A stretch of DNA of 64,000 bases from a virus. Position 1 is the stretch's first letter. Every line of letters starts with the position of its first letter. A program made the position numbers and the translations under genes. Of this stretch, positions 5,020-59,272 are shown piece by piece. The DNA lies in IMG/VR virus record IMGVR_UViG_3300044732_000737, positions 1-64,000 of that record. One strand, 5' to 3'. Under the pieces are notes generated by a model. That model was given only the letters and a program-made list of their open reading frames with translations, did not search any database and was not told the DNA's origin.

Positions 5020-5036
5020 CTTTAGCGTACCCTGGT
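5020..5036 (-). promoter_or_regulatory. Putative phage RNAP promoter (variant ACCAGGGTACGCTAAAG) upstream of SSB
   Basis: Intergenic copy of the 17-bp repeated motif, immediately after the RNAP gene. Confidence 0.8.
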
Positions 5037-5041
5037 AAAAC

Positions 5042-7210
5042 TTAACAAAAAGCATAATCCGAGTACACGATCTGTCCTACATCAAGATTACCCCTCTCAG
5101 GAATAAGGTCTTCACAGTGAAGTTCAGACAATAATTTCTCTAAGGGTTTGGCTTTATAGAACTCTACAAACTGTTCTCTTACTCTATAAAACAAATCATC
5201 CATACGTCCCGGTAAAGTACCGAAAGAATCATGGACAACAGTCATTTCATATGGTGCAGACACTACAGTCATTGTCAAGTGAGCAGCATCGAAACTATGA
5301 ACGATGTTTGGTGCAGCACCTGTCTTTTGGGAATCTTTGTTAATAGTTGCTTCTTCCCAAGTCTGAAGTTGAATCTTTAATTCTTCTTCTCCGTACTTCA
5401 ACTTAGTACGTACAATAGATGGCTTACGATATGCCTGAACTACTGGGAAGTTAGTTACAGGTGTAGTCCATTTTAAAAACACTTCTTTTTCATTAGATCT
5501 TTGTGCAAGATTTTGAAACATACGAAGCATTGTGGCTGGCCCTTTAAGTTTCTCATAACAAGTCTCAAAGACCAAGTCACCTAGCAAAGCACCCCAGAGG
5601 TGTTCCTTGTCACGGAGATACTCAGACATATCACGGGTATCATCAATAATCTGTTGACCCATGCCGTATGCAGTACCACCGTAACCGAGAGTCATTACAT
5701 TTCTCTTTACTACTTTACGCTGATCTTTTGGATTATCAATGTTAAGCCAGTAAATAGGAAATAACTTTTCTCGTATAGCTCGATTCTGATTACGCCATTC
5801 TTGAGCAGCAGCATAAGCTAAGGCCTTCTGCTCTGTCTTGTCTGGTGCATCAAAGTAAGCCTTTTGAAGTTCCTTAGCTTTACTGTAAACTGAATCGAAT
5901 TGATTACGTTCTTCATCAGTAAGCTTATCTGCCATTTCCTGTAAATGTTGCCATACATATTTTGCAATATACATGTACACATCACCAGGAAGATCTTGAG
6001 GGACTAAATTAACTAATGGTGCAATGTCTTCATCTTGAGACATAGCTACTAGGTGCTGAACACCGTTATTAGAGCCATCGATATACACTGGAAGTGCACA
6101 CTGATAGTCTTCTAACTTGTTACCTAGCATTAGCCATTCTTTGATTTTCCTTAGTTCATTACAAGCAGCTAAGAAAGAGAATGGAGCATCGGTATCAATC
6201 CAACCTTGGTTAATAGTTGGTTTCTCTGCATAAGATAAGAATAAATTAATGTTCTCATCTACGAACTCAGCCCTCTGCTTTAGCGTCACCTTGTCGTTAC
6301 CAAAAGAATTGGCAGTATGTACCTTTAGCCAGAACAAACCATTTTCACCGAGAGGTGTGGCCTGATCTAGTAATAGTAGACCTTTTGCGTTATCGCTAGA
6401 CTGCTCGTGTAAAAATGCAGTGTTGACATACACTCGACCACGAAAGTCAAAGTTATACACATGATAGAAGGCATTATCTAGGTGAGTTAAAGCTAATTGT
6501 TCAATAGCTTCTGCTTCAATTAGCAATGACTTTCTTTTCTCTTCATCAATCTCAGAGTGTAGTTTGAAAGGACTAGTCGGATTCTCTTTATGGAGGAAAT
6601 GCTGATATACTTTGAATACATCTTTATTGATCCGCCATCCAGTAGCCTGTAGCTTATTCAGAATATCATACAAGGTTTGCTTGTCGTTATTCTTAAACTG
6701 AGCTAATGCTGTAGAATGACCTTTCTTAATAATTGGTACACCTAAGTTATTGTAAGCAGAGTCCCAGGGTGTTGCTTTTTCTCTAAGAGGAAATATATCA
6801 ACTTTAGTTTGATCTATTAAACTCCAGAGATCTTTAATTGCTTTCCAATCTTTTACTTGAAAGAAATAAGCTTGATATTTACTTTTCTTGCCGTTCTTGT
6901 ATGTGTACTTTAATCTAAAAGAAAGAACTCCACATTCAATATAAGCAATACAAATAAACCAGCCAACCTGTGCATCAGAGATAGTATCGTTAGGTAAGTC
7001 AAGTGTTTGTCTAACCCTTCTACCAATGGTAGCGATAATGTCTACTAATGTACCTTGTCTCTCAAGTCCACGTAATATATGAGGATATGAGATGTCTACT
7101 AATGTTTTTGCATCATAATCCTTTAAATAGTGAGTGTAGATATTCCGGTCTGCACGTAAATTTTCTTGCCGTTTACTAATATCACTTACTAATTTATTTA
7201 ATATCGTCAT
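5042..7210 (-). CDS. Single-subunit (T7-like) DNA-directed RNA polymerase
   Basis: DFRGRVY, motif A DGSNNGVQH, motif B RKVVKRNVMTLGYG, AAPNIVHSFDAAH, motif C VHDSFG, C-terminal YAFC (T7 has FAFA). Confidence 0.97.
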   Translation of the reverse strand: MTILNKLVSDISKRQENLRADRNIYTHYLKDYDAKTLVDISYPHILRGLERQGTLVDIIATIGRRVRQTLDLPNDTISDAQVGWFICIAYIECGVLSFRLKYTYKNGKKSKYQAYFFQVKDWKAIKDLWSLIDQTKVDIFPLREKATPWDSAYNNLGVPIIKKGHSTALAQFKNNDKQTLYDILNKLQATGWRINKDVFKVYQHFLHKENPTSPFKLHSEIDEEKRKSLLIEAEAIEQLALTHLDNAFYHVYNFDFRGRVYVNTAFLHEQSSDNAKGLLLLDQATPLGENGLFWLKVHTANSFGNDKVTLKQRAEFVDENINLFLSYAEKPTINQGWIDTDAPFSFLAACNELRKIKEWLMLGNKLEDYQCALPVYIDGSNNGVQHLVAMSQDEDIAPLVNLVPQDLPGDVYMYIAKYVWQHLQEMADKLTDEERNQFDSVYSKAKELQKAYFDAPDKTEQKALAYAAAQEWRNQNRAIREKLFPIYWLNIDNPKDQRKVVKRNVMTLGYGGTAYGMGQQIIDDTRDMSEYLRDKEHLWGALLGDLVFETCYEKLKGPATMLRMFQNLAQRSNEKEVFLKWTTPVTNFPVVQAYRKPSIVRTKLKYGEEELKIQLQTWEEATINKDSQKTGAAPNIVHSFDAAHLTMTVVSAPYEMTVVHDSFGTLPGRMDDLFYRVREQFVEFYKAKPLEKLLSELHCEDLIPERGNLDVGQIVYSDYAFC

Positions 7211-7306
7211 TATTATTCTGTTTTATCTTTTAAGAATTTGAGAAGATTGTTTGATACTTGTTTTCCGATTAAAACCCCGAATAAGAGTAAGAGTGTTGTA
7301 ATTATA

Positions 7307-7336
7307 ATTATACTCCAATTTGATTAAAAAAGTGAA
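7307..7336 (-). promoter_or_regulatory. Possible sigma70-type promoter upstream of the RNAP gene
   Basis: TTCACT-18 bp-TATAAT, followed by a second TATAAT. The AT-rich context weakens the call. Confidence 0.35.
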
Positions 7337-7368
7337 CTCTGCCGCCCCCCGAAGGAGACGGCAAGTTC
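7326..7368 (-). terminator. Hairpin/terminator with cUUCGg loop upstream of RNAP
   Basis: GAACT-TGCCGTCTCC-TTCG-GGGGGCGGCA-G-AGTTC-ACTTTTTT. Confidence 0.7.
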
Positions 7369-7510
7369 GGTTCATTTTCGTAATAGCTCCAGTAAAGTGA
7401 AAGATACGCTCGAAAGCAGGATAACGATTGCTAAAAACAAAATGTATTTTGCAAACAAGGTAATAGCTGTAACTGCAAAAGCAAATATACAGATATACCA
7501 AATGCTCATA

Positions 7511-7699
7511 CTAATCATTTCTTTCATCCTTTTTCCTTATTTTTAAATGAGAGAATACCACACCAGCAATACCCCATAAGGTAGTCATCACTAACAATGT
7601 AATTAGCGTCTTAACAATGGTTGATAAGACAACTAAAGAATACATTGAAGTAAGTAAACCTATAAAGGATATCACTGCTAGGATGGATAACGAAATCAT
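7511..7699 (-). CDS. Small membrane protein
   Basis: Two hydrophobic segments; AGGAAGG RBS. Confidence 0.6.
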   Translation of the reverse strand: MISLSILAVISFIGLLTSMYSLVVLSTIVKTLITLLVMTTLWGIAGVVFSHLKIRKKDERND

Positions 7700-7795
7700 T
7701 TAACTGGCCTTCCTAAATAAGCTAAAACAAAAGCTACTGTATATGTAACTGCATAGTACATAATAGGTAACAAGAAAAAGCTCAAGATTGACATT

Positions 7796-8029
7796 TTATT
7801 TCCTAATAGTGTTAACATGACCGATTTGTTTAAATCGTTGATTAACTAGTCGCATTGGATTGGCTTTCCAATGATCAAGTTCTTCACCGATTTTATTGAA
7901 GAATTCCAGACTATGTGGTTCATGGCGAACTTTAGCATAGTTGAAAATCTCTTTACTGACTTGGTAGACATAGCCTTCCTCATCAGCAATCTTTACATCA
8001 GAATAGGCAGGTGGACATTTAGTACACAT
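7796..8029 (-). CDS. Hypothetical early protein
   Basis: Tightly packed minus-strand ORF with GGAG RBS. Confidence 0.6.
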   Translation of the reverse strand: MCTKCPPAYSDVKIADEEGYVYQVSKEIFNYAKVRHEPHSLEFFNKIGEELDHWKANPMRLVNQRFKQIGHVNTIRK

Positions 8030-8030
8030 T

Positions 8031-8285
8031 TTAAACTCCGAGTTTTTTATCTACAAAGACTAAGTCTTCAATAGCTTTGAAAATCCTACGAAAGTCTTCA
8101 GCAGACTCTGTAAGGACAGAAGCTACAGTTTCTCCACTCATGTATGCTGATTTAACATCATACAAAGAAGGAGACACTACAGCCTGCAAGAAGTCGTCAT
8201 ATACAGTTACTTCAACAGAGTCGAAGGCATTGTACTGAACAGCTTCTATAGTATAATCACCAGCTTTTAAAGTTAGTCTAGGCAT
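8031..8285 (-). CDS. Hypothetical early protein
   Basis: Tightly packed minus-strand ORF. Confidence 0.6.
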   Translation of the reverse strand: MPRLTLKAGDYTIEAVQYNAFDSVEVTVYDDFLQAVVSPSLYDVKSAYMSGETVASVLTESAEDFRRIFKAIEDLVFVDKKLGV

Positions 8286-8287
8286 AA

Positions 8288-8581
8288 TTAATTCTCAAAT
8301 ACTTGATCGTAAATTGTACTGAATTCAATAATAGAACCATCAAGCTGAACTTCATTACACATTCTCTCAATTAGATCTTTAGAGTAACTTGTAGCATAAA
8401 TTGCTGGTATACCCTTAGTGTCATTTGAGAAAATATATGTGAGGCCAAACTCTTCTAATGATTCAATTACTTCTTGTGCTGTAGTTCCAAAGTTATCCCC
8501 ATAAAGAGGATTCAACAGTAAGTACCTAGGCATAGACTTTCCTTTATCAAGTTCTTTGATTCGATTTGAGTTACTATTCAT
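8288..8581 (-). CDS. Hypothetical early protein
   Basis: Tightly packed minus-strand ORF. Confidence 0.6.
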   Translation of the reverse strand: MNSNSNRIKELDKGKSMPRYLLLNPLYGDNFGTTAQEVIESLEEFGLTYIFSNDTKGIPAIYATSYSKDLIERMCNEVQLDGSIIEFSTIYDQVFEN

Positions 8582-8905
8582 ACTATTACAATCTCCACTA
8601 GTTCTGGAAGATATGCTTCAAGATCTTTTAGATTAGTTGTCTTAGTAATCAAGTAACCGCTTTTCTTAGAATACACGTAGTACATTACTTCAGTCATTTT
8701 AATTCCTTTGTTGATTAGAACAGAGCGTCAAGACCGTGCAGTACCAAAGCTAACAAACCCATTGAAACTGCAACTACTGTAACAGCATCCATAAGCTTTT
8801 CATTTACTTTCATGATTTTCCTTTTTGAGTTAATAAGATTAGAGTCCTATCTTTTAAGATATTCTTCTATTATAGATACGTCATTTTTCTCACTTTTTTT
8901 TTGAT

Positions 8906-8935
8906 AAAAAAGGCCACCCTTTTTACGGGGTGACC
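8906..8935 (-). terminator. Intrinsic terminator ending the structural operon
   Basis: GGTCACCC-CGTAAAAA-GGGTGGCC-TTTTTT right after ORF 8943-9176. Confidence 0.85.
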
Positions 8936-8942
8936 ATTAACT

Positions 8943-9176
8943 TTAAGCAGGTACTGGTTGAGTCTCTGCTGGTTGCTCTTCTGATAAAGCTTTCTTAAGC
9001 ATATCAAAGAACGTGTTACGACCTACTTGGAGTTGATCCAAGTTGAATTTAGAGGAGTCGATTTTGCGATCTAAGTCTGCAACATGGTTTAACAACATTT
9101 GCTGTTGTTGACTCATGTCCTCATACTTGTATTCTACGCCATCGATATTTACAGGGGTCTTTTCATTTTTTCCCAT
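8943..9176 (-). CDS. Small coiled-coil protein of the tail-fibre locus
   Basis: IDGVEYKYEDMS...HVADLDRKI...QLQVGR pattern; last gene of the late operon. Confidence 0.7.
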   Translation of the reverse strand: MGKNEKTPVNIDGVEYKYEDMSQQQQMLLNHVADLDRKIDSSKFNLDQLQVGRNTFFDMLKKALSEEQPAETQPVPA

Positions 9177-9250
9177 TTTAATTTCCTTTTTAAATTGTCA
9201 CTAAATGTCAGGTAGTGACTTCCTGTTATATTTGTTTGATTATCTTTTAA

Positions 9251-9850
9251 TTAGAGGTAACCATTAGATAGTCCAATAGTAATACCAGTTCGTGTAGTTA
9301 ATACAGGTGAACCTGAAGAGCTTGAAGATATTTCTACAGTGTATGTAGCGGTTATTTGGTTAGCTGGACTTTGAAAGATAACGATTTCTCTACCTGAGTT
9401 TAATTGAAGCCAGCCAGTAGAAGCGGTAGATGCAGCATCTGCTCCAGGACCTCCTGTTGCTGTTTTCGTAAATCGAATCCAATAATTTGATCCTATACCG
9501 CTAGTAGTTGGGTTACCCCAAGTTTGGCCAAGGGATTGATATCCAAAATCATAACCATACTGATCCATAGTTCCATTAGCATTCCACCGAATACCTGCGC
9601 CAGCTGTTTCTCCGAAGGAGTAAAACACATCATCAATAAAGTAACCATTACCAAAACCGCTTGAATAAGCTACTGTAAAGTTCGCTTTACCCCAGCCATC
9701 GCTCATTGAAATAGTTGTGCCACTTCCAGTCTTTTGAAACAAAGATCTAAGAGCAGAATCATTCATATCAATGGTAGCAGTGGCTGATCGTCCAAGTTCA
9801 GTGTTTACTTGGTTTAATGATATAGTACTGCCAGATCCTGGAAGTGCCAT
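9251..9850 (-). CDS. Putative tail-fibre tip adhesin / virion protein
   Basis: N-terminal MALPGSG..ISLNQVNTELG...TISMSDGWGK module followed by a Gly/Ser/aromatic beta-rich domain; lies downstream of an S74 fibre. Confidence 0.55.
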   Translation of the reverse strand: MALPGSGSTISLNQVNTELGRSATATIDMNDSALRSLFQKTGSGTTISMSDGWGKANFTVAYSSGFGNGYFIDDVFYSFGETAGAGIRWNANGTMDQYGYDFGYQSLGQTWGNPTTSGIGSNYWIRFTKTATGGPGADAASTASTGWLQLNSGREIVIFQSPANQITATYTVEISSSSSGSPVLTTRTGITIGLSNGYL

Positions 9851-9852
9851 AA

Positions 9853-10203
9853 TTATGCCTCAGTAGGTGTTGCTTCTGGGGCAGGTGCCCAAGGCATTGG
9901 GGTAGAAACCAAAGCAGCTTTTGCAACTTCTTTCCCTAACACATATTCAATATGTGCTTTGATAGCAGGAATGCGCTCATCTGTAGCTTCAACCCAAGCC
10001 ATAACAGCAGTTTCTGTTAGACTAGTCAATGGTACAAAGTTAGCAGAATCAGGATCACCAAGCTCGGTTGTCTGTGGTAATTCAAACTTCTGACCAGCCT
10101 CTTCACCGATTAGTGTCCATTCAACTTGTTTCACTGTGTTTTCTAATCCGTTAACTGTAGCAGTACGGATACCGTTAATTTTAATTGTAAATGCAATTGC
10201 CAT
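9853..10203 (-). CDS. Tail-fibre accessory protein (paralogue 3)
   Basis: FVPLTSLTETAVMAWV...MPWAPAPE, similar to 15068-15433. Confidence 0.7.
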   Translation of the reverse strand: MAIAFTIKINGIRTATVNGLENTVKQVEWTLIGEEAGQKFELPQTTELGDPDSANFVPLTSLTETAVMAWVEATDERIPAIKAHIEYVLGKEVAKAALVSTPMPWAPAPEATPTEA

Positions 10204-10205
10204 AT

Positions 10206-24870: not shown

Positions 24871-25329
24871 TTAATCAATTGGATAAATTAAACTTTTGTT
24901 TCTCTTTATCCAGCCTTGTTTGAGTAACACTCGATTGAATGTTTCATAGTTATCTAGTTCACTAGACGTAACTACTAGACGAATATTCTTTTCTCTAGCA
25001 GCCTCTATCATTGCTTCATGGACAAGAATTAATGCTTTTACAGCAGAATATCCAGATAAGCTACAATGGTAATATAATTGATACAATACTTTTTCTCTAG
25101 AATGAAGGTATGGTCTAGTTGCTTTTGCAGCTATCCAACCAACTAGTTCATCATTGTATTTAACAATCCTGAAGAAATCACCACGTTTAGCAAGAGCTAT
25201 CAGGTTTTCCCTACAGTAAACTTCATCTATTTCGATTTCATTTGATTCATAATGACTAAATAATTCTAATGAAATATCTAGGCATTTATCGATTTCTTCT
25301 AATGTTCTTATTTTATCTATTAATATCAT
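24871..25329 (-). CDS. GNAT-fold (acyltransferase-like) protein
   Basis: Pattern ELVGWIAA...LYYH...ALILVHEAMIEAAREKNIRLV...RVLLKQGW resembles the GNAT core. Confidence 0.55.
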   Translation of the reverse strand: MILIDKIRTLEEIDKCLDISLELFSHYESNEIEIDEVYCRENLIALAKRGDFFRIVKYNDELVGWIAAKATRPYLHSREKVLYQLYYHCSLSGYSAVKALILVHEAMIEAAREKNIRLVVTSSELDNYETFNRVLLKQGWIKRNKSLIYPID

Positions 25330-25364
25330 ATATAATATATTACCTAGGGGAGCCTAGGATCTCT

Positions 25365-25381
25365 CTTTAGCGTCCCCTGGT
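25365..25381 (-). promoter_or_regulatory. Putative phage RNAP promoter ACCAGGGGACGCTAAAG(AGAGA)
   Basis: Intergenic copy of the repeated motif, upstream of the GNAT and fibre genes. Confidence 0.85.
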
Positions 25382-41511: not shown

Positions 41512-41562
41512 AATTATCCTTAAATACTATATAATACTACCTAGGGGAGGCCTCAGATCTCT

Positions 41563-41579
41563 CTTTAGCGTCCCCTGGT
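41563..41579 (-). promoter_or_regulatory. Putative phage RNAP promoter ACCAGGGGACGCTAAAG(AGAGA)
   Basis: Intergenic copy of the motif abutting the upstream terminator. Confidence 0.85.
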
Positions 41580-41601
41580 AAAAAGGGGAAATTAATCCCC
41601 T
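41580..41601 (-). terminator. Intrinsic terminator after the major tail protein
   Basis: AGGGGA-TTAATT-TCCCCT-TTTT. Confidence 0.75.
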
Positions 41602-45301: not shown

Positions 45302-48300
45302 TTACGGTCCAATACCATACCAATCCATACCTTTAGGTATAGGAGCTAGTATATCTTTTCTCGTAATTTTGTTGCGAGGATTTAGTAAGCCATCCTCAAT
45401 AGCTTTTTGGCGAAGTCGATTGTATGTTTCATTTGACATACCTTCTTCTTTTAGTGCCAGTAATGTTTTCTCTATTGTCTCACCTTCTAAAGCATCTGCA
45501 TAGATTTCTCTAAGAGCTACTTTGGACTTTGCTGCTTGTCCTATGTTGGTGAAGAAAGCATCGTGAATCGTTGCGGTTTCAATACCACTTTTACGACCCC
45601 ATAAATGAAATCTTCTTACAATAGCGGCATCATTCATGTGGTTACCGTTAACCCCCATGCCAATGCCAGCCCTTTGGAGGCTTGATTTTCCTAGAAGTGA
45701 AGCATCTTCTGCTCGATCTTCGTAAATATTACGGACCATCCTGTTAGCTTCTTTGTCATAGAACTCAATGCTAGTTTGGATTTTAGGTCTGTATCTCTGG
45801 TATAAAGTCTTACCATCAAATGTTACCCAAGGTACATCGACCTTCTGAGTTTCATCAACGTAAGCTTTAGCAGCTTCTTTCCAGAATTGTACGAATTTTT
45901 GAGTTACTGGTGCTCTCTCAGCTAGTCTCCGAGACATAATCTCTGACACTGCCTTGAAGTCTTGAGGACCAATTAGTCCCTTACGAGCATTCATTAACTT
46001 ATCGACAAACGCTTCTACGTCTGGGTGAGAATCACGAGCGTGTGCTAAAAGTTCTTGCCCCACAGAGGTTTCACCTTCAACAACTTCGTTTAACTCACGT
46101 TTTAATTGTTTAAGACCAAATACGACATTTTCAGCTCCTAGCCTATCTGCCTCTTTAATCTTTGCATCTATAATATTAGTTACTCCACGAAGTTCTTCAC
46201 GGGTAACAACAGTATATCCTTTTGTCTCTAACACTGAAGCAAACTTAGCTTCAATATTAGCTGCTTGTGTTGCTTTACCTGCACCATAGAAAGAAACCAT
46301 GTTTTGTGCTTTTGCAGCCTTTTGAAGATCTGTCCACTGAACATTAGCATCTCTCAATCCTTGTATTTTCTGAAACTCTGGATCAGACACTGTATCCATA
46401 GCTACTAAGTCATACAAACGATTTTTTTGTAATGTAGGTAATACGTTTGAGTTGATTGAAATATCTCTATCCCCAGTACTTAATCCGATGATCTGAGCAC
46501 CAGAGGATGAAGCATCATTCTCAATCATTAATTTTGTCTTATATGTCGCTAGTTTATTTACATCAGTAAAGTCACCACCTACATGATCATATATACGAGC
46601 ATACTCAATAGCTAGTCTGGAGATTTTTGGAATCTCTTCTGCCTCAGTAGCTCTGATAATAGGATGCTCTAGAAATTCCCTGATACGCCTATCACGTTGG
46701 GTAGTTTCCCTCATTAGGCGACCTAAACTTAAAATATCTCTTTGATTTCTCATAAAGATTTCCATCCGACCTGCTTGTGTTAACGCCTCAGTAGCTGGAC
46801 CAATCATAGAACCAGTTTGAATCATTAACTCCTGAACAATTTCAGGTGTAACGGCCTCTGCCTTAGCAGTATTCAAGAACGGACGAACAACTTCACCACC
46901 AGTAGGTGTTAAGAAACCTTGATAGTAAACACGACCACGACCATCGATATTAGCAACAACGCTAAATGGCTTTCCAGTATCTCGATGATACTTTACAGTC
47001 TGCATAAAGCTATATCCCTGATCTCCACGAGTCAAAATAAGTTTTCTAAAGTCATTTAAGTCATCATACTTTTTTACATTTCCACGAGGATCTCTAAAGC
47101 GAACAACATCTTCCATAAATCCAGCATACTCATTATCAACCTCATATTTCACTGACATTGTGTGATTAAGCATATCAGCAAAATCACGATCAATTAGTAC
47201 TCTGTCATAATTAGCATTAGCTCTACGTGTAATAATCGGAATACCTGTGTTATTGCCTCTAGCATCAAAATAAGTCTTAGCTCCAGGTCTTACATAAAGC
47301 TTATCTCTATCAGAGTTAATACCAATTCGTTTTGCTAATAAAGCACTACGATTAGCCCTTTGTAAGTTGAGCATATCTTTATTTAAGATCTGAACTTCAC
47401 GACTAACAGTATCTCTCCAAGGACCACTAGCACGACCAGTCTCAAGATCAACAACTGATCTCCTAGTCTTGCCACGCATAAGTACACGGATGTAGCCTTT
47501 GTCTTTTAATGCTGTAAGAATCTGCGATCCATCAGCATGGTAGTCTTGTAGTGTAGGCTTAAAGAATGGGAAGTCTGCGACATTCCAAGATTCTCTTAGT
47601 GTTTTACCTACATTAATTGCCAATGAATCGTAGTCAGTTGACTTACCATCAGCAACAACAGTCAATACCTTTGATAAGGTATCAATTGCTTTCTTGTCGT
47701 TTAAACCGCCCTCTACTAATTGATTTAAATAACTTTGTCTTCGTTTACCGAATAAAAACTCTAAGTCCACAATCTTACGATAGTCTTCTCTTCTGTTTCT
47801 TAAGAATTCATCAATTAATCTTTCACTAGGTACTTTGTCTTTAAAAAAGAGTTTAGCTCCAGGAACATTACTTAACAAGAATTTAACTACTTTGTCTTTG
47901 AAGTTATCAACACCAATTCTGGGAGCACCTCTAAACCAAGTATATACAGGAGTTCTTCCAGTATAATACAAAGATCTAGCTAATGGCCTACCTTCTGTAG
48001 TAGCCCAATTACGAACATAACGTTGATTATCAATATTATTTTCGATAATCTCGTCAAATGTATAGTACTTACCAAAGATCTGAACTTTAGCTGGCTCTCC
48101 AGCGACCCCATAAGAATCAAACTGCTGAGATCTAGCTCTTGATCTACGATCTAAAATACGGCTTGTGTTAACTACAGAATATTGCATTTCACCACGAGTA
48201 ACATTCATAAAGTTAACCCATGGTTGCTTATCGTTATTGTATCGCTCAAAAATAACACGTAGATTCTCTGCAATAGCAGTCTGTTGATTTACAGATACTG

Positions 48301-49738
48301 AATCATCTAAGCTTTCAACGAATTGTTGAATCCATGCTTTTTGTTCTTGATTAAGAGCCTTAGAATTTTTAATAAAGTCTATACGTTCTTGTAATACATT
48401 AAAGTCTGGATCATAAAGTAAAGTAGAACTTTGTTCGCCTGTGAAAGGATCAAAGCTATTGTTACGTTCATCAAACTCATTGTTTGCTCTAATTCGAACT
48501 GATCGTTTACCTGCTAGAGTAGTACCACGATAATCTACTAAAGAAATAGTCTGAGCAGTATTCTCAGTGTCTGCAATATACATTGCCTTTAACTGTTTAG
48601 TAGCCTCTGTATTCCTCATTAGTTCATATGGTCTAGCCACATTAATTGCAAACAGATTAGACTCTGCCTCGGCTACAGCTGACTGCCTAGTTGGGAAGAA
48701 ACTTGTTCTTGCATTATCAAGCTTCCTTAATGCAGCAATGCTTAGTTGTTGACCTTTAGCAGTCGTAAATGCTTTTACATCCAAAATACCTTTCTGTAAT
48801 AGTCCAGCACGCTCCTCACTACCTAGATGTTTAACTTGAACCATCATAGGCTGGCGCTTAAGCCAAGAACCGTAAGTTTCTACTGGTGGTAAACTACCAT
48901 CAACAAGTTTTTCAGAAGTTTCTCTTAGCTTGTTAACCTTTACTCTTGTATCTTTTGCCTCAGCAGCTTTTAATAGTTCTTCTTTGTTCTTTAAAACAGG
49001 AACCATAGAGCTACGGCAATTCCAGTGAAGTGGTGGTCTAAATCTTAGATCATCAATCTTGTATACTTGGCCATCATGGTGTGCACAGACTCTTGAAGTT
49101 CTATTGTCTAGTACAGCAGTAAATCTGTAACCTTTTAAAACCTCTTTATTACGATCCATTACTAAATTAAGCGCTTGTGCTTGTGTATTAGTAATAGCAG
49201 TCCTAACTAAAACCTTAGCCTGAACCTCAGTCAGGGTGGTTGTTTTAATTACATCTGAAATAATTTCTTTTACTGGCTTATTGTCTGCTAAACCAGATTT
49301 AATCTTTCCATCAATCCTAGCAAGTTCACTCGTACCAACAGTATCAAAGTGATCCCTTAAGCTTTTGGATGCTGTAATGTTAGGTCCAATAAGTTTAGGA
49401 ATAGCATCACTACCCCTAGGCTTTTGAACTCTGAAGAATGAACCAGCACTCTTCTCTAAATTGTTAGCATGAAAGCTTACAGAGGCATCTGCATAGTCAC
49501 TAACTGAATTGCTAGCAATCATGTGCAACTCTTTTGTTGCTCGAGTTACCTCTGGCTTTACATCGGCCTTAATGTTCTTTGTTAAGAGTACTCTAAGGCG
49601 CTTTTGATGTCTACGAATGCCCCTACTTACATTAGTGGAGGTCTCCGCTTCATATAGTCTTGTATCAGCTAAGTGCTGTACAATTCTGTCATAAATTTCC
49701 GTATTAATAGGAGTTGGCATATTTCCCCTTGATACCAT
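45302..49738 (-). CDS. MuF (SPP1 gp7 / Mu gpF) minor head protein fused to a single-subunit RNA polymerase (probable start MPTP at 49720)
   Basis: N-terminal: LVRTAIT...YRFTAVLDNRTSRVCAHHDG...PPLHWNCRS...ETYGSWLKRQP. C-terminal: DGRGRVYY, NDASSSGAQ (A), KAAKAQNMVSFYG (B), VNGNHMNDAA, TIHDAF (C). One uninterrupted ORF. Confidence 0.92.
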   Translation of the reverse strand: MVSRGNMPTPINTEIYDRIVQHLADTRLYEAETSTNVSRGIRRHQKRLRVLLTKNIKADVKPEVTRATKELHMIASNSVSDYADASVSFHANNLEKSAGSFFRVQKPRGSDAIPKLIGPNITASKSLRDHFDTVGTSELARIDGKIKSGLADNKPVKEIISDVIKTTTLTEVQAKVLVRTAITNTQAQALNLVMDRNKEVLKGYRFTAVLDNRTSRVCAHHDGQVYKIDDLRFRPPLHWNCRSSMVPVLKNKEELLKAAEAKDTRVKVNKLRETSEKLVDGSLPPVETYGSWLKRQPMMVQVKHLGSEERAGLLQKGILDVKAFTTAKGQQLSIAALRKLDNARTSFFPTRQSAVAEAESNLFAINVARPYELMRNTEATKQLKAMYIADTENTAQTISLVDYRGTTLAGKRSVRIRANNEFDERNNSFDPFTGEQSSTLLYDPDFNVLQERIDFIKNSKALNQEQKAWIQQFVESLDDSVSVNQQTAIAENLRVIFERYNNDKQPWVNFMNVTRGEMQYSVVNTSRILDRRSRARSQQFDSYGVAGEPAKVQIFGKYYTFDEIIENNIDNQRYVRNWATTEGRPLARSLYYTGRTPVYTWFRGAPRIGVDNFKDKVVKFLLSNVPGAKLFFKDKVPSERLIDEFLRNRREDYRKIVDLEFLFGKRRQSYLNQLVEGGLNDKKAIDTLSKVLTVVADGKSTDYDSLAINVGKTLRESWNVADFPFFKPTLQDYHADGSQILTALKDKGYIRVLMRGKTRRSVVDLETGRASGPWRDTVSREVQILNKDMLNLQRANRSALLAKRIGINSDRDKLYVRPGAKTYFDARGNNTGIPIITRRANANYDRVLIDRDFADMLNHTMSVKYEVDNEYAGFMEDVVRFRDPRGNVKKYDDLNDFRKLILTRGDQGYSFMQTVKYHRDTGKPFSVVANIDGRGRVYYQGFLTPTGGEVVRPFLNTAKAEAVTPEIVQELMIQTGSMIGPATEALTQAGRMEIFMRNQRDILSLGRLMRETTQRDRRIREFLEHPIIRATEAEEIPKISRLAIEYARIYDHVGGDFTDVNKLATYKTKLMIENDASSSGAQIIGLSTGDRDISINSNVLPTLQKNRLYDLVAMDTVSDPEFQKIQGLRDANVQWTDLQKAAKAQNMVSFYGAGKATQAANIEAKFASVLETKGYTVVTREELRGVTNIIDAKIKEADRLGAENVVFGLKQLKRELNEVVEGETSVGQELLAHARDSHPDVEAFVDKLMNARKGLIGPQDFKAVSEIMSRRLAERAPVTQKFVQFWKEAAKAYVDETQKVDVPWVTFDGKTLYQRYRPKIQTSIEFYDKEANRMVRNIYEDRAEDASLLGKSSLQRAGIGMGVNGNHMNDAAIVRRFHLWGRKSGIETATIHDAFFTNIGQAAKSKVALREIYADALEGETIEKTLLALKEEGMSNETYNRLRQKAIEDGLLNPRNKITRKDILAPIPKGMDWYGIGP

Positions 49739-52767: not shown

Positions 52768-52776
52768 AAGAATTCC

Positions 52777-53325: not shown

Positions 53326-53333
53326 AATGCTCC

Positions 53334-53486
53334 TTAGAAAGGTAGGTATTTGTTGATTAGGCCATTAACGATTCTGTCTGAGAGATCATTTGGTAAATAT
53401 TTAAGGAAGCCTAGGAAATATAAAGCTACAGCACCGTAGCAAAATATTTTAAAGCATAGGTCTGCAGTCTTCTGATACTCGTTCAT
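53334..53486 (-). CDS. Small membrane protein (50 aa)
   Basis: Manual translation MNEYQKTADLCFKIFCYGAVALYFLGFLKYLPNDLSDRIV... Confidence 0.6.
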   Translation of the reverse strand: MNEYQKTADLCFKIFCYGAVALYFLGFLKYLPNDLSDRIVNGLINKYLPF

Positions 53487-53977: not shown

Positions 53978-54129
53978 TTTCTTTTCCCTTTATCCGTTTT
54001 GTCATTGTTCTTCCACTTTAAACAACTGACCTTACGGTTATAAACGGGTCCCTGCCATGTCCATCTCTCACAGACGGGGGCTTTTGGGTCATAACCAGCT
54101 AACACTAAGGTAAGAAGAATAGTAGACAT
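53974..54129 (-). CDS. Small secreted protein (51 aa)
   Basis: Manual translation MSTILLTLVLAGYDPKAPVCERWTWQGPVYNRKVSCLKW... Confidence 0.55.
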   Translation of the reverse strand: MSTILLTLVLAGYDPKAPVCERWTWQGPVYNRKVSCLKWKNNDKTDKGKRK

Positions 54130-54744
54130 TTACACACCTAGTACATGGAGTGCATGTGCATAGTGCTTTTTACGGTCCTCGATACCAATGGTACCTCCGT
54201 TAATTTTTCTTGTTAATGTCTCTATATCGCCTTGATCTGCCCATTTATTTAAGTTATTAGTTTCCCAGAACCAGCAAGCACTCTGTGCAGCACCTTCAAA
54301 GGTACTCATGTACTCACTAGCTTCCTCTGCGGAAATACCAATAGACTCAGCAAACCAAAAATAATTATCTTTACCTGTTAACTGTATTAGGCCTCTACCA
54401 GAGTACCTATATCCATCTCCTGAAGCCTCATCTCCATTACCCATACGATTAGCGTAGACCTTGTTAGCAATAGCTTCAGGCTTACCTGCGAACTGCCTTG
54501 CTAGTTCATCATTAGGGAAATACTTAGGGAAGATTCTTCGGAGTGTCTCCCAACGATAGTTGAGATTTTCTTTAATCATTGTAAACTCGCCTGACTCATG
54601 AGCACATTGAGCAACGAATGCTGCAATACGCTTCTCGGTATCAATACCATAGTCGGGTAGGAGTTGTTCTAAGGCATGATGCCAATATGTGACATGCTTA
54701 TTACGTGGAATAAGTTGTCTAAGCTGATCTAGTGTTAGTATCAT
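54130..54744 (-). CDS. Endolysin, glycoside hydrolase family 19
   Basis: AAFVAQCAHES, ENLNY, ANKVYANRMGNG, GRGLIQLTG, TRKINGG. Confidence 0.93.
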   Translation of the reverse strand: MILTLDQLRQLIPRNKHVTYWHHALEQLLPDYGIDTEKRIAAFVAQCAHESGEFTMIKENLNYRWETLRRIFPKYFPNDELARQFAGKPEAIANKVYANRMGNGDEASGDGYRYSGRGLIQLTGKDNYFWFAESIGISAEEASEYMSTFEGAAQSACWFWETNNLNKWADQGDIETLTRKINGGTIGIEDRKKHYAHALHVLGV

Positions 54745-55004
54745 TTAAGCGCCTCAAACAGTTTCTTTTGTTGTGTATACCACTCACTCCAACCTTCAAC
54801 ACGGTTAGCACATAAGTGATATTCGGAATAGTTAGTCACAATGGTCTTTGTGAGTTCTGATAGCTCAGGCTTTTCGTCTGCTACCTTTAATTTAGGGCAC
54901 AGAGTAAGTAACTCTTTAGGTGCCTCTGGGAACTTGGCCACTACAGGGACTACTGTAGAGCATCCTGATATTACTAGGGTAGACAATAGTATAAGCTTCT
55001 TCAT
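54741..55004 (-). CDS. Outer-membrane spanin (Rz1-like lipoprotein)
   Basis: Lipobox VISG-C, Pro-rich, CP..L and Y..C patterns. Confidence 0.8.
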   Translation of the reverse strand: MKKLILLSTLVISGCSTVVPVVAKFPEAPKELLTLCPKLKVADEKPELSELTKTIVTNYSEYHLCANRVEGWSEWYTQQKKLFEALK

Positions 55005-55390
55005 TGTGTAGCCGCCTTATTGTGTATTGTAATAACCTCTGGAGGGATCTTACATTGATCATTGTATTTAACAATCTCACGATCAATATATTTGATCTGC
55101 ACATCAGCAGCTTCTTTAACGATCTTCTCTTTAGTTACTATTTTGGTTACTATTTGTGTGTTAACCTCAGACTTCTTAGCCTCTAATGCTGCTATTTGTT
55201 CCTCTAGTGATTTAACCCTAGCTTCCCAGACATTATTACAAGACTTATATCCTGCAATAAATAATGCAGCAAATATTAAACCTACAGCAATAGGTCTATA
55301 ACGGTCAAACTCTTTAACTACAAAACCTAGCAAGCCCACCATAAAGACAATAAACACTAACCACATTGGTATATAGTTAATTAAAAACAT
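55001..55390 (-). CDS. Inner-membrane spanin (Rz-like)
   Basis: N-terminal TM helices, coiled coil, C-terminal CKIPPEVITIHNKAA. Confidence 0.8.
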   Translation of the reverse strand: MFLINYIPMWLVFIVFMVGLLGFVVKEFDRYRPIAVGLIFAALFIAGYKSCNNVWEARVKSLEEQIAALEAKKSEVNTQIVTKIVTKEKIVKEAADVQIKYIDREIVKYNDQCKIPPEVITIHNKAATQ

Positions 55391-55424
55391 TGTAATCCTT
55401 TTGGCTAACGCCAGTTATAAAGAA

Positions 55425-55493
55425 GAGCAGTAGTGGGATTCGAACTCACATTCCAGAGATAACGTCTGATTCTACCTATTGAACTATACTACT
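55425..55493 (-). tRNA. Degenerate tRNA / tRNA-like element (atypical anticodon arm, no encoded CCA)
   Basis: AGTAGTA-TA-GTTC AATAGGTA GAAT-CAGA CGTTATC TCTG-GAAT-GTGAG TTCGAAT CCCAC-TACTGCT. Acceptor, D and T arms recognisable; anticodon stem only 4 bp. Confidence 0.6.
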
Positions 55494-55497
55494 CTAG

Positions 55498-55539
55498 TGA
55501 CGCCTTTTACTGTAGCGACAACAGCCCTAAGGTGGGTTC
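55498..55539 (-). ncRNA. Candidate structured RNA (two hairpins plus pseudoknot) just upstream of the tRNA-like element
   Basis: GAA-CCC ACCTTA GGG-CTGT TGTCGCT ACAG-TAAAA-GGCGTCA; loop 2 can pair with the 3' GGCGTCA. Confidence 0.35.
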
Positions 55540-55582
55540 TTGCTGAATATCTCATGAACTTAATCACTTGACTATCAGATTG

Positions 55583-55873
55583 TTATTTAAATTTGTTTGT
55601 CCACTTAACTACCCATGCCCAATAAGCAGCACTCATTCTGCCCTTCTGGATATCAGCCTTATGTCTAGCATAGAAGGCTTCTCTACGTGCTTGGTAGGAG
55701 TCTGACTCACCATCCTTGGGAGGAGACCCAGTAACACCTTGAGCACCAAAGCGAATAAGCTTAATAGTGTCACCTTCTTTGGCTAACACTGCATGTGAGT
55801 TAGTTGAATTACCTGGGGTTTTCTTTGGTTTGTTATAACCTTCAAAGGTTTCACCACGATATTCAATAGCCAT
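55583..55873 (-). CDS. Conserved phage hypothetical protein
   Basis: GYNKPKKTP...KLIRFGAQG...RREAFYARH...SAAYWA. Confidence 0.75.
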   Translation of the reverse strand: MAIEYRGETFEGYNKPKKTPGNSTNSHAVLAKEGDTIKLIRFGAQGVTGSPPKDGESDSYQARREAFYARHKADIQKGRMSAAYWAWVVKWTNKFK

Positions 55874-55953
55874 AATTATTTCTTCCTACGCTTGTGATAA
55901 GATTCTTCACGCTTTTCATTATCACGTTTCTTTTTATTTGACATAATAATCCT

Positions 55954-57279
55954 TTAAAACATAAAGCCTTTAGTAACTGTCTTAGTACCTGAACGAACAG
56001 GAAATAAGTATTCAACAGCATAACGAAGAGCATCTGTCCAGTGTTCTACGTTCTCTGCCTTAGATATCTGTGCTGTATTTGGATTGTTTTCAACCCATAC
56101 AGTTCTTTCAAGAGACCTAATAGTGTGTTCTGCTCTAGGGTGTACATACATATCGATATCACCATGAGCATTCTTAAACTTACGGTTAACAGCAGCTACT
56201 GAGTCAACAATAGGAGGAGCAGCCTTGTGTGCTCTACAGATAATACCATGACTCTCTAAGATGGAGAAGTCAGTAGCGCCAGCAACAGCACTAGTCTTCC
56301 TAGCTCGTCCTGCAGGGTCTGGATAAGCGAATACTTTATGACCTTTATCCTTGAATTGTCCTTTAAGCTTCTTAGCTAATTGTTCAGTATCGAGAACATT
56401 CTGCATGTCCTCTAAGATATGAATCTGTCCAGCTCTAACAGCAAAGACTACAGCAGCCATAATGCCAATGTTAAAGTCAATAGCCACATGGACATCTTCT
56501 TTGTTTGTTGTCTCTACATTGAAGTATGGTAGATCAGCAGTCACATGAGTCTTACGATCAAACATGTAGAATACCTTAGCGCCAGAGTCCTCAAAGGAAC
56601 ACTCATACTCTCGAGCAAACTTCATAGGGTCAATCAGACGCTTAGTCCTCTCGATCTCTTCCACAGAGAGATATGGGGAGTCCCTATAGGTATATCTAAA
56701 GGTCTTCCAACGGTTGTCCATAGACTCAAAGTTAGTCATGTCGTAGAAGTAATTCATACCCTTAGGTGTACCAATAATAAGAGCCTTATGGTTACCTGCC
56801 CAACGTGTAGTCATAGCAGGTTGAATAATAGATTCCCAAGACTCTTTAAGTCCTGGCTGACCAGTCCAGTCAGAGACCTCATCTCCAACAACAAAGTACT
56901 GACCCGATCCCCGCATCCTCTCAGAGGCTTCATAGGACCATAGCTTAAGCTTCACATTGTTCTGAAACCAGAATGTTCCAGCTGTCTGAGATGACTTCTC
57001 AGCATAATCCTCTAAGCCTAGGTTGTAGGCTAGTAGAGGCCAATAAATATCTAACGACTGTTGGTATGTTGGACAGATAATCGAGACGTTCTTATTAGGA
57101 ACATCTTCAGGCATCTCTAGCAACTCATGAACAGCCATTGTAGCAGCAACACTAGCAAGGTAACTCTTACCAAAGCCTCGTGAAGCTACTGTAGCAGCAT
57201 ATCTAGTGCCACCCTTTTCTGAGAACAAATACTTTAATACTTCAGACTGACCTCTGTGTAATTTAATTTCATTTGACAT
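55954..57279 (-). CDS. terL: Terminase large subunit
   Basis: Walker A SRGFGKS, Walker B VVGDE, GTPKG, FAREYECSF, nuclease DFN...DPAG...HWTDALRY. Confidence 0.96.
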   Translation of the reverse strand: MSNEIKLHRGQSEVLKYLFSEKGGTRYAATVASRGFGKSYLASVAATMAVHELLEMPEDVPNKNVSIICPTYQQSLDIYWPLLAYNLGLEDYAEKSSQTAGTFWFQNNVKLKLWSYEASERMRGSGQYFVVGDEVSDWTGQPGLKESWESIIQPAMTTRWAGNHKALIIGTPKGMNYFYDMTNFESMDNRWKTFRYTYRDSPYLSVEEIERTKRLIDPMKFAREYECSFEDSGAKVFYMFDRKTHVTADLPYFNVETTNKEDVHVAIDFNIGIMAAVVFAVRAGQIHILEDMQNVLDTEQLAKKLKGQFKDKGHKVFAYPDPAGRARKTSAVAGATDFSILESHGIICRAHKAAPPIVDSVAAVNRKFKNAHGDIDMYVHPRAEHTIRSLERTVWVENNPNTAQISKAENVEHWTDALRYAVEYLFPVRSGTKTVTKGFMF

Positions 57280-57486
57280 TTAAACGATCACATCAACCTT
57301 ATCTTTGGTTACGATGTCCTTCTTCTTATTACATTGTCTAAGCTCTTCAAGTTTTTTATTGAACTGAGCTAACTCGTATCGTGCTTGGATGCCTTCTTGG
57401 AAGATCTTGTTGGAGGCTTCTTTTAGTTGCATGATAGCATTTGTATAGTACTCAATGCTGTATTCTGCTGCTGATTGTACTCTCAT
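57280..57486 (-). CDS. Hypothetical protein
   Basis: AAGGAA RBS; coupled to terL. Confidence 0.6.
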   Translation of the reverse strand: MRVQSAAEYSIEYYTNAIMQLKEASNKIFQEGIQARYELAQFNKKLEELRQCNKKKDIVTKDKVDVIV

Positions 57487-57553
57487 ATGTATTCCTTTTT
57501 ATTGTATACGTAACTGTAATAATTTTATCTATTTTATTTCAGTGTATACTTAA

Positions 57554-57952
57554 TTATTCATTTGTGAAGACAATCTTAAGCGGCTTTTTATCTTCAATTA
57601 CTTGTTCACTCTTCTCAGGCACCTGTCTGTAACCATATCGCATGAGCGTATTCATCACACTTGTCTGGATGTTCAAGAGGTTCGCTAAGGCCACTGCAGA
57701 GTACCTTGTTTGGCCACTCTCCATAGCATTAATCTTATCCTGCACCTTGTAGTAGTGATCTACAAGTTTCTCAATAGGGTCAAATCCTAGTGTTTGAAGC
57801 TTCTTAACTGATTCTTTTGAATAGATTGTGGTAGTTCCCTTTGGGCGACCCTGTCCAGGTCTAAGTCCACCACGGGTTCTCTCTGACACATTTGGGTCTT
57901 GAACTACCCCAGTTGAGGTATCTTTGACCTCTTTGTTTGTTGAGGTAGTCAT
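57554..57952 (-). CDS. Putative terminase small subunit
   Basis: RGGLRPGQGRPKG motif and FDPIEKL; upstream of terL. Confidence 0.7.
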   Translation of the reverse strand: MTTSTNKEVKDTSTGVVQDPNVSERTRGGLRPGQGRPKGTTTIYSKESVKKLQTLGFDPIEKLVDHYYKVQDKINAMESGQTRYSAVALANLLNIQTSVMNTLMRYGYRQVPEKSEQVIEDKKPLKIVFTNE

Positions 57953-57958
57953 AATGTA

Positions 57959-58099
57959 TTATTTCTTATTCTTTGGTTTATATTTCTTGGCTAAATCTAG
58001 AGCAATAGCTACTGCTTGAGCATGAGGTTTACCCTCTTTTTCAAGAGTCCTAATGTTAGCACTCACGGTTTTATCACCGTAGCCCTTCTTAAGCGGCAT
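57959..58099 (-). CDS. Small basic phage protein (46 aa)
   Basis: Manual translation MPLKKGYGDKTVSANIRTLEKEGKPHAQAVAIALDLAKK... Confidence 0.7.
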   Translation of the reverse strand: MPLKKGYGDKTVSANIRTLEKEGKPHAQAVAIALDLAKKYKPKNKK

Positions 58100-58412
58100 T
58101 TTTAGCTCCACGTCTGGTTGTGGTTTTAGCAGGGGTCTTTACAACAGGAACAATATTGTTACTGTGTAATTGAATCTTTAGATCAGAGATCATAGTAAGC
58201 AGCTCTTCTTTGTCTCTGAGCAACTTATCAACCTTGCCCTCAAGCTTCTTAACTTCAGACATGAGCAGTTCAGTCAATTGATCGTGAGCTTCTTGTCGTT
58301 GCTTATCTTTGCTATGCAAGTAGGTCCAGAAGGCACCTGTACTTAACACAACAATAGCCATTTGAATAATCGATTCCATTTTAATTCCTTTTAGTATAAA
58401 ATCCATAGACAC
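58089..58412 (-). CDS. Membrane-anchored coiled-coil protein (likely start MESII at 58379)
   Basis: N-terminal TM plus coiled coil; AAGGAA RBS before the internal Met. Confidence 0.65.
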   Translation of the reverse strand: MSMDFILKGIKMESIIQMAIVVLSTGAFWTYLHSKDKQRQEAHDQLTELLMSEVKKLEGKVDKLLRDKEELLTMISDLKIQLHSNNIVPVVKTPAKTTTRRGAKNAA

Positions 58413-58635
58413 TGGGAGACACCTTCTACCTTGAACAGGTAGTGTCTCTACACAAGTGTTACAGAATGATATTTAAATAATATTTTAAAGTACTCTTTAA
58501 AGTACTCCTTTAAAAATATTTTATAATATTATTTTTAATAAACAACAACAATAATTAATGTACCTTAATGCTACCGCTATTAAGTTACTCTTTTAATATT
58601 AACCCCCTAAATCCCCCTTTTGGATAGGATTCTCT

Positions 58636-58652
58636 CTTTAGCGTCACCTGGT
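58636..58652 (-). promoter_or_regulatory. Putative phage RNAP promoter (variant ACCAGGTGACGCTAAAG) heading the packaging/lysis/head operon
   Basis: Intergenic motif copy followed by AGAGA. Confidence 0.85.
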
Positions 58653-58662
58653 ACTTTTTGAC

Positions 58663-58739
58663 AAAAAAAAAAAGAATTACCCCTCCAGAGTACCCTCTAA
58701 CCACCCCCGAAGGAGCAGTCAAAGAGTACCCTGGAGGGG
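58663..58739 (-). terminator. 28-bp G-U-rich hairpin with cUUCGg loop followed by U11
   Basis: CCCCTCCAGGGTACTCTTTGACTGCTCC-TTCG-GGGGTGGTTAGAGGGTACTCTGGAGGGG-TAATTC-T11. Confidence 0.85.
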
Positions 58740-58763
58740 AGGTTTAAGTTAAGCACTTAAGGG

Positions 58764-59246
58764 CTATGCATAGAATAAATGGTTTCCAATTGTAACTGTG
58801 TGAGTTAACTTCTTAGACCATTTGGGTAAGACGTAGTTAGCATGATAGAATAATGACCCCTTTGTAGGATCTTTGAGTCTGCCCTGTAAGTAGTTAGTAG
58901 CAATAGCATGAGCTACTTGGTACTGTGATTTGTTCTTTGGATAGTGGTTCTTTAATAGCTTTACCCAAGAGAATTGGTAGGGTTGATACACAACCTTACA
59001 CACAGAGGAGGGATAGCCCTGAGCCAGTAGTCTGTTTATTGTGACTGCTGCTACTGCTATCTGACCTTTAATAGATTCTCCTCGAGCCTCATGGTAAATG
59101 TTATGAGCTAGACAATCTATATCTTTCTTTCCAAAGGCTAAAATAGGCTTAGGAATAGTGTGAAATACAGCTGATTCAGTTACAGTGCTTGTTTGCATAG
59201 GAAAAAGAATCAGCAACAAAATTGCTAAATTTCTCATAGTTTGCAC
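58764..59246 (-). CDS. Cell wall hydrolase, SleB/Hydrolase_2 family, with signal peptide
   Basis: CLAHNIYHEARGE, GQIAVA, VCKVVYQPYQFSW, DPTKGSLFYH, IGNHLFY. Confidence 0.92.
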   Translation of the reverse strand: MQTMRNLAILLLILFPMQTSTVTESAVFHTIPKPILAFGKKDIDCLAHNIYHEARGESIKGQIAVAAVTINRLLAQGYPSSVCKVVYQPYQFSWVKLLKNHYPKNKSQYQVAHAIATNYLQGRLKDPTKGSLFYHANYVLPKWSKKLTHTVTIGNHLFYA

Positions 59247-59255
59247 CTTCTTTCT

Positions 59256-59272
59256 CTTTAGCGTCCCCTGGT
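59256..59272 (-). promoter_or_regulatory. Putative phage RNAP promoter ACCAGGGGACGCTAAAG(AGA) upstream of the hydrolase
   Basis: Intergenic motif copy. Confidence 0.85.

Follow-up and report, generated by a model that had tools for sequence, protein, structure and literature searches.

Promoters of the T7 group are contiguous conserved sequences of about 20–23 bp that occur in several copies per genome, co-oriented with the genes. The block from -12 to -8 separates the promoter specificities of T7, T3, SP6 and K11, and in the structure of T7 RNA polymerase (RNAP) with its promoter, residue R746 reads the template G opposite the C at -7. Two further systems are pertinent. Coliphage N4 uses more than one transcription enzyme of its own, a virion RNAP and then RNAPII, with a timed hand-over; its early promoters are DNA hairpins, and RNAPII is not known to have a long consensus. 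Siphovirus Xp10 is a long-tailed phage that has a T7-like RNAP for its late genes. Here we describe a 17-nt motif of an uncultured long-tailed phage represented by a complete 77,817-bp IMG/VR record (IMGVR_UViG_3300044732_000737, genome G000), of which bases 1–64000 form the window analysed. The motif quite probably constitutes the middle and late promoters of a 722-amino acid (aa) T7-like single-subunit RNAP encoded by the same genome. Such a motif is the expected arrangement for a phage with its own T7-type RNAP: the element is of a well-known kind, and the polymerase pair is unusual. The nearest cultured relatives of this virus are the roseophages DSS3_VP1 and DSS3_PM1 (Naomviridae), siphoviruses with uracil-containing DNA (dU-DNA).

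A 17-nt motif conserved in strand and position

An earlier reading of this DNA (the original prediction) had placed five minus-strand copies of a motif in intergenic positions, co-oriented with the genes, and pattern searches recovered the same five sites at exactly those coordinates (Table 1). In the window, ACCAGGKKACGCTAAAG was matched exactly five times, always on the minus strand, while the mean count in 100 dinucleotide-preserving shuffles of the window was 0.00. A genome-wide motif search, which had been proposed together with the prediction, was performed as a mismatch scan of the whole genome and returned five exact copies and one near copy only. The distribution of mismatches was bimodal, with six sites at zero or one mismatch, none at two or three, and a background at four or more. 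The one extra site (6278–6294) carries a single mismatch and lies on the minus strand within the open reading frame (ORF) of the 722-aa RNAP; the remaining 13.8 kb of the record, beyond the window, contained no copy. The 12-mers derived from the motif ranked among the most repeated of the genome and were the sole such set not located in coding repeats. All genes of this phage lie on the minus strand and, according to the ORF map, about 95.7% of the genome is coding. The non-coding fraction is thus about 4%, and the five exact copies all fall in it, in gaps between real genes and oriented with them; the only overlap, at the 58636 site, is with a doubtful 45-codon ORF starting with TTG.

The conserved stretch extends from a T at -17 to about +6, the 17-mer core spanning -16 to +1 when its final G is numbered as the predicted start. 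The purine run originally noted after the motif in four copies was found again: the final G is followed by AGAGA or AGAAA in four of the five exact copies, and by CACAA in the one located after the RNAP gene. When the internal site is included, the start sequence is G-AGA in four copies and G-CA in two (the post-RNAP and internal ones). The C at -7 is invariant. The A/T-rich segment from -4 to -1 (TAAA), the G at +1 and the purine-rich initial transcript expected from it are in register with known promoters of the T7 group, whose contiguous, multicopy and co-oriented layout the motif shares. The 17-mer has neither dyad symmetry nor the bipartite -35/-10 form, and in the regions covered by consensus scans for -35 and -10 hexamers 16–18 bp apart, none of the sigma-70-like sites fell on a copy.

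Relatives of the RNAP, at identities of 29–98%, are present at 34 IMG/VR loci, and conservation was analysed among such relatives, including five whole records (G001–G005) whose RNAPs are 63–92% identical to that of G000. These relatives were recognized at the protein level only; when the RNAP gene was compared with 50,697 phage records at the DNA level, nothing matched. Each of the five whole genomes has five or six copies and gave five to seven matches to the motif at two mismatches or fewer, 27 of the 28 being on the strand of the RNAP gene, and the reversed pattern used as a control gave none. Each intergenic copy had as its next downstream gene an orthologue of one of the same five genes, except in G004, where one copy precedes a neighbouring gene. 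The copy preceding the SleB orthologue lies 16–17 nt upstream of it in G001–G003, and that of the 107-aa gene 205–214 nt upstream. The 17-mer was unchanged even where the downstream protein was only 35–42% identical, and it stayed constant while the sequences of the flanking hairpins varied. Its upstream half was near-invariant in every relative with an RNAP at least 59% identical, while positions -6 to -2 differed by subclade, so that the motif and its positions are conserved in related phages and change along with the polymerase lineage. De novo k-mer searches in more distant relatives (RNAP 46–48% identical) gave no clear late motif within the 10–22 kb examined.

The single-base variants of the motif had been proposed to mark middle and late classes. 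The variants hold their positions among close relatives only. There, the GGGT variant located after the RNAP gene is kept, as is the GGTG variant preceding the terminase operon in two of three genomes in which the latter site was recovered. In relatives further away, every site has GGGG. The start sequence is a steadier divider in the close clade, with G-AGA at the putative late sites and G-CA at the two RNAP-proximal ones. Taken together, the variants and start sequences hint weakly at a middle/late split.

The internal site spans codons for the peptide D-K-V-T-L-K-Q, which is identical in all close relatives. A set of five rare G-ending codons that spells the motif is used in G000, L008 and L016–L018, while at ten other loci the peptide is encoded by common A/T-ending codons, which destroy the motif. 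Given the codon usage of this genome, the codons that spell the motif have a joint frequency of 2.7e-5. Since rare synonymous codons spell the motif in some lineages, and the unchanged peptide occurs elsewhere without it, the codon choice points to selection on the DNA sequence at this site in those lineages. In L018, a tandem second copy is present after the RNAP gene instead. In the complete record of G000, the best weak match (77007–77023, minus strand) has four mismatches and a start sequence, G-CAC, like that of the post-RNAP copy; it lies inside an ORF just upstream of a deaminase gene (see below). Similar variants are used in relatives, and this match could represent either a weak internal promoter or chance.

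Comparison with the promoters of SP6, T3 and T7 and with the motif of DSS3_VP1

The original prediction considered the upstream part of the motif to be unlike T7, T3 or SP6 promoters. This proved wrong for SP6. A 14-mer pattern covering -13 to +1, AGGKGACNCTAWAG, matched SP6 at eight sites on the plus strand, which make up the promoter set of that phage and include both T and G variants at -10; it matched five sites here and none in T7. From -13 to +1 the motif is identical to the SP6 promoter at 12 of the 14 positions, or at 13 of 14 in copies with GGTG. The likeness includes the entire block from -12 to -7 (GGTGAC or GGGGAC), with the same G/T alternative at -10, a start at G followed by purines, and the presence of several co-oriented copies per genome. 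The motif differs from the SP6 promoter in having G rather than A at -6, A rather than T at -2, and ACC rather than TTT at -16 to -14, and over the wider interval from -17 to +6 it matches SP6 at 12 of 23 positions and T7 at 11 of 23. Given that the -12 to -7 block is the same as in SP6, orthogonality to SP6 should not be assumed and appears less likely than previously held, which corrects the idea of an obviously orthogonal pair.

The proximal part of the motif, C-N-CTAAAG-purine-GA, resembles the T7 and T3 promoters, which also form a conserved unit of about 23 bp. The 11-mer CNCTAAAGRGA occurs eight times in T3 and three times in T7, and four of the copies described here contain it. The placement of +1 at the final G, suggested in the original prediction, agrees with the register given by the annotated +1 positions of T7 (NC_001604) and by the pattern matches in SP6 and T3. 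A promoter directly after the RNAP gene is a further likeness (26 nt downstream in T7, 12 nt in T3, 6 nt here), as are, for T7, a long hairpin-plus-U terminator and an RNAP gene placed behind a different, earlier promoter. In the -12 to -7 block, however, only two of six positions agree with T7. This phage also differs from T7 in having only five or six copies in 78 kb, replication genes that follow the polymerase gene and occupy the far end of the map, and a second RNAP fused to a MuF head protein. From SP6, a Salmonella phage of the Autographiviridae (Zindervirus), it differs in being a long-tailed 78-kb phage with a second RNAP.

Among named phages, the RNAP was closest to those of DSS3_VP1 and DSS3_PM1 (49% identity). 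DSS3_VP1 contains 13 plus-strand copies of a homologous motif, RATAGGKKRCGTTAAAG, compared with the five or six found here, and two of these precede orthologues of the 81-aa and 167-aa genes, so that the homologous motif occupies two syntenic positions. The two motifs are identical at 16 of 23 positions from -17 to +6; that of DSS3_VP1 has AT at -15/-14, T at -5 and a G-rich start. DSS3_VP1 and the present phage have about 28 genes in common, including those for the MuF-RNAP and a Dcd-type deaminase, and a homologous early motif is also present (see below). Two papers on Naomviridae and dU-DNA (PMC8323127, PMC12697855), one of them the family description, contain nothing on RNAPs or promoters, and no promoters of Naomviridae are described in the searchable literature.

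The polymerase likely to read the motif and alternative explanations

The 722-aa protein, labelled an RNAP in the original prediction, matched PF00940; an intact, presumably cognate T7-like RNAP gene is present in the same genome. Comparison with T7 RNAP structures gave E-values of 4.6e-62 and weaker. The enzyme is 30% identical to T7 RNAP and 26% to SP6 RNAP, and is 150 aa shorter than the latter; it retains the catalytic motifs and a residue equivalent to T7 R746. The predicted MuF-RNAP fusion was also confirmed by domain matches. Its polymerase domain retains T/DxxGR and motifs A, B and C and aligns to the specificity-loop region of T7 RNAP, where it keeps a counterpart of R756 and has Ser at the position of R746. 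It matched T7 RNAP with an E-value of only 4e-7, and the two phage enzymes are 21% identical to each other.

With good confidence, we assign the motif to the 722-aa RNAP. The motif is near canonical promoters and this RNAP is the canonical enzyme of the two; the C at -7 is invariant, and the residue that would read this position is kept in the 722-aa RNAP but replaced by Ser in the MuF-RNAP; neither the early genes nor the RNAP's own gene has a copy upstream; and otherwise this polymerase would have no conserved motif. Several observations weigh against the assignment. Both RNAP genes co-occur in every relative found (two IMG/VR searches returned the same clade), and co-occurrence therefore cannot assign the motif to either enzyme. 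The specificity-loop segment of the 722-aa RNAP is unlike those of SP6 and T7, save for the arginine matching T7 R746. As judged from alignment only, the protein lacks about 70 N-terminal residues of T7 RNAP and about 80 more around T7 positions 150–230, and the region of the AT-rich recognition loop is shortened. N4 RNAPII, likewise a T7-like enzyme of small size, is not known to recognize a strong promoter consensus. Finally, when hairpins at transcript 5′ ends were sought at six sites, only that of the post-RNAP leader was significant (z -2.5), the others folding no better than shuffles; a conserved 5′-end RNA hairpin was thus rejected as a general transcript feature (one of six sites).

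The shortened AT-rich loop region does fit the ACC at -16 to -14, which is not AT-rich. Since the specificity-loop sequences differ, the SP6 likeness of the motif would not derive from a shared loop, and it is no direct proof of contact. The polymerase is no closer to SP6 RNAP than to T7 RNAP and lacks an SP6-like specificity loop. In spite of the SP6-like layout of the motif, the polymerase/promoter pair, as judged by sequence, is not part of the SP6 lineage.

Were the motif instead the promoter of the MuF-fused RNAP, injected copies of that enzyme would start the units on entry and, its own gene lying behind the 58652 copy, would be self-amplifying. Its intact catalytic motifs, the specificity-loop alignment with the R756 counterpart, its occurrence together with the motif in all relatives, and the location of its gene downstream of a copy are in keeping with this. 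We nevertheless consider it improbable. The genes behind the copies are middle and late ones, and the early genes and that of the 722-aa RNAP have no copy before them; this is the opposite of what the first targets of an injected enzyme should be. The MuF-RNAP is far from the canonical enzymes, while the motif is near canonical SP6 and T3 promoters; Ser occupies the position with which T7 RNAP reads -7; and the 722-aa RNAP would be left without a conserved motif.

It is considerably less probable still that the motif is not a promoter but a signal for the processing or termination of RNA, or an operator bound by a phage DNA-binding regulator that acts with the host RNAP or a phage sigma factor. 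Terminator hairpins do lie 10–25 nt upstream of two copies, but they are outside the 17-mer and vary while it remains constant. The position-by-position match to SP6 and T3 promoters, in register with the annotated +1, the missing dyad symmetry and the missing -35/-10 form also argue against such functions, and no sigma-factor gene was present among the proteins scanned, which represent part of the ORFs. Hardly credible, finally, is the view that the copies are functionless relics of a duplicated cassette or mobile repeat. About 27 extra leader bases are common to the 25365 and 41563 copies, as a duplication might leave, but the other copies have only a core of 17–23 bp in common. Number, strand and gene context are kept at 63% RNAP identity, and a homologous form of the motif at 49%, and one copy appears to be maintained by rare synonymous codons.

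If the 722-aa RNAP reads the motif, as preferred here, the 17-mer would be the -16 to +1 core of a T7-group promoter of about 23 bp, with transcription starting at the final G. The four copies with G-AGA would drive the late units, namely the SleB lysin alone, the terminase-capsid genes including that of the MuF-RNAP, the tail genes and the fibre genes. The copy that begins 6 nt past the RNAP stop codon would drive genes for replication and nucleotide metabolism, the internal copy might add to it in this lineage, and hairpin-plus-U terminators would close the units. No copy of the motif lies upstream of the RNAP gene; the sole other conserved promoter-like motif, termed here the early motif, sits there. 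With the RNAP gene behind the early motif and lacking an upstream copy, another enzyme must express the RNAP first. This enzyme could be the host RNAP or the capsid-borne MuF-RNAP, in a temporal relay similar to that of T7 or N4. A more specific version, which is possible but which on balance we lean against, is a relay of two phage RNAPs. The early motif would be read by the capsid-borne MuF-RNAP and, at the following stage, the SP6-like motif by the 722-aa RNAP, which would have reached an SP6-type specificity at -12 to -7 with an unrelated loop and without a T7-style AT-rich loop. If this were true, the phage would offer a new small polymerase/promoter pair for engineering. The N4 system would differ in that the second-stage enzyme here appears to have a long, SP6-like consensus. 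In the relatives with dU-DNA, the compact RNAP may act on uracil-containing DNA.

For this uncultured clade, a relative of the dU-DNA Naomviridae, the arrangement provides a complete putative transcription map with a single early motif, two sites of the middle and four of the late class, and terminators. It also supplies defined DNA targets for telling apart the roles of the two phage polymerases. The combination of an SP6-type block with a much smaller and distant polymerase bears on the evolution of promoter specificity and on compact polymerase/promoter pairs.

Proposed transcription units, early region and accompanying elements

Table 1. Candidate promoters, terminators and polymerase genes in the window. 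Leader lengths were counted from +1, taken as the final G of the motif, to the next start codon.
Feature	Position	Strand	Description
Candidate late promoter	59256..59272	-	GGGG; start G-AGAAA; a small gene ends 6 nt upstream; leader of about 19 nt to the SleB-type hydrolase ATG
Candidate late promoter	58636..58652	-	GGTG; start G-AGAGA; 224-nt leader to a 107-aa gene; heads the terminase, portal, MuF-RNAP and capsid operon
Candidate late promoter	41563..41579	-	GGGG; start G-AGAGA; 52 nt before an 81-aa gene that opens the tail-chaperone/tape-measure module
Candidate late promoter	25365..25381	-	GGGG; start G-AGAGA; 36 nt before a 152-aa GNAT-like gene, followed by fibre genes
Candidate middle promoter	5020..5036	-	GGGT; start G-CACAA; begins 6 nt past the RNAP stop; 71 nt before a 167-aa gene
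Candidate internal promoter	6278..6294	-	One mismatch, at -14; start G-CAGAG; spans codons for D-K-V-T-L-K-Q
Early motif, of a different kind	8867..8893	-	Single copy; A-run at 8894–8902; just past the terminator of the last late operon
Hairpin and sigma-70-like sequence	7307..7364	-	11-bp GC-rich hairpin (7339–7364) with T-run, then TTCACT-18-TATAAT (7307–7336); 97 nt before the RNAP ATG
722-aa T7-like single-subunit RNAP	5042..7210	-	PF00940, E 3.9e-80
MuF head protein with very divergent T7-type RNAP domain	45302..49738	-	1478 aa; catalytic motifs intact
Predicted terminator	58663..58739	-	28-bp hairpin (58680–58739) and 11-U run (58663–58673); would end the SleB unit 10 nt before the next copy
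Terminator-like hairpin and T-run	41586..41600	-	Directly upstream of the tail-module copy; sequence varies among relatives, hairpin kept in each
Terminator-like hairpin and T-run	8912..8935	-	End of the fibre (last late) operon

The products of the genes downstream of the copies were compared with protein families. The SleB hydrolase and the large terminase of the original prediction matched PF07486 and PF03237, respectively, while the protein it named SSB (4446–4949) had no family match. The GNAT label (24871–25329) found partial support in a weak match to a PHROG acetyltransferase (E 2.6e-4), and nothing stronger was obtained. The SleB unit consists of a single gene, and the genes for replication and nucleotide metabolism headed by the post-RNAP copy run on across the ends of the record. 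The hairpin at 58680–58739 has a predicted energy of -55.1 kcal/mol (z -7.5), none of 200 shuffles folding as well. Terminator-like hairpins at 8900–8935, 7320–7364 and 4410–4440 (minus strand) have in common a tail made up of a T-run and ATCAAA.

The further leader bases common to the 25365 and 41563 copies correspond to 25338–25364 and 41536–41562 (minus strand). This common fibre/tail leader contains a C-rich box followed by CCTAGGTA and is kept in relatives, although its folding is not significant. The leader of the terminase operon (58413–58635, minus strand) is AT-rich and contains a direct repeat of an 11-mer, and a hairpin of 12 bp immediately precedes the first gene; across relatives its length is conserved at 205–224 nt, and it may contain a packaging or regulatory site.

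The early motif heads about 1.65 kb of small ORFs leading to the RNAP gene. One or two copies are present at the same place in every close relative, with the inner eight bases invariant but for one C/T position. More distant relatives contain diverged versions. DSS3_VP1 has two copies, right after its tape-measure gene, and between this clade and that phage the conservation of the motif extends over about 35 bp. It includes a perfect TATAAT, but the upstream block lies 13 nt away rather than 16–18, and the ‘spacer’ is invariant, which is not as in a plain sigma-70 promoter. A consensus scan of 8582–8942 detected no plain sigma-70 promoter on the coding strand, and this option was rejected for the early gap. 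The early motif is thus a candidate promoter either for the host RNAP with sigma-70, under an added constraint, or for the MuF-RNAP. A small palindrome following it shows compensating substitutions among relatives.

Closer to the RNAP gene, the element preceding it in relatives (L011, L016–L020, L019, L033 and L035) is built of two stems that interlock. The outer one shows covariation in five lineages and surrounds GGGAG-TATAAT, and the element looks like a pseudoknot or an attenuator.

Proteins with a possible role in nucleotide metabolism were also inspected. A PF00383 homologue of the DSS3_VP1 dCTP deaminase, an enzyme that supplies dUTP for dU-DNA, is encoded at 76460–76876 of the complete record (12460–12876 of L137, minus strand; 37.5% identity). 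No HD-type dTMP phosphatase was found among the proteins of this phage that were scanned. A protein of the nucleoside 2-deoxyribosyltransferase family is encoded at 3277–3690 of the window (minus strand).

A terminal repeat of 127 bp is present at positions 1–127 and 77691–77817 of the complete record. As 127 is a common assembler k-mer length, the repeat may be the overlap of a circular assembly and not a true direct terminal repeat. In L129 (3001–5661; IMGVR_UViG_3300034072_000514), the match to the MuF-RNAP spans 2661 nt compared with 1896 nt, as would be expected if an intron or intein had inserted in the polymerase domain. Finally, ARAGORN identified a tRNA with anticodon UUA, which reads the UAA stop codon, at 55424–55494 (minus strand), between the terminase gene and those that follow.

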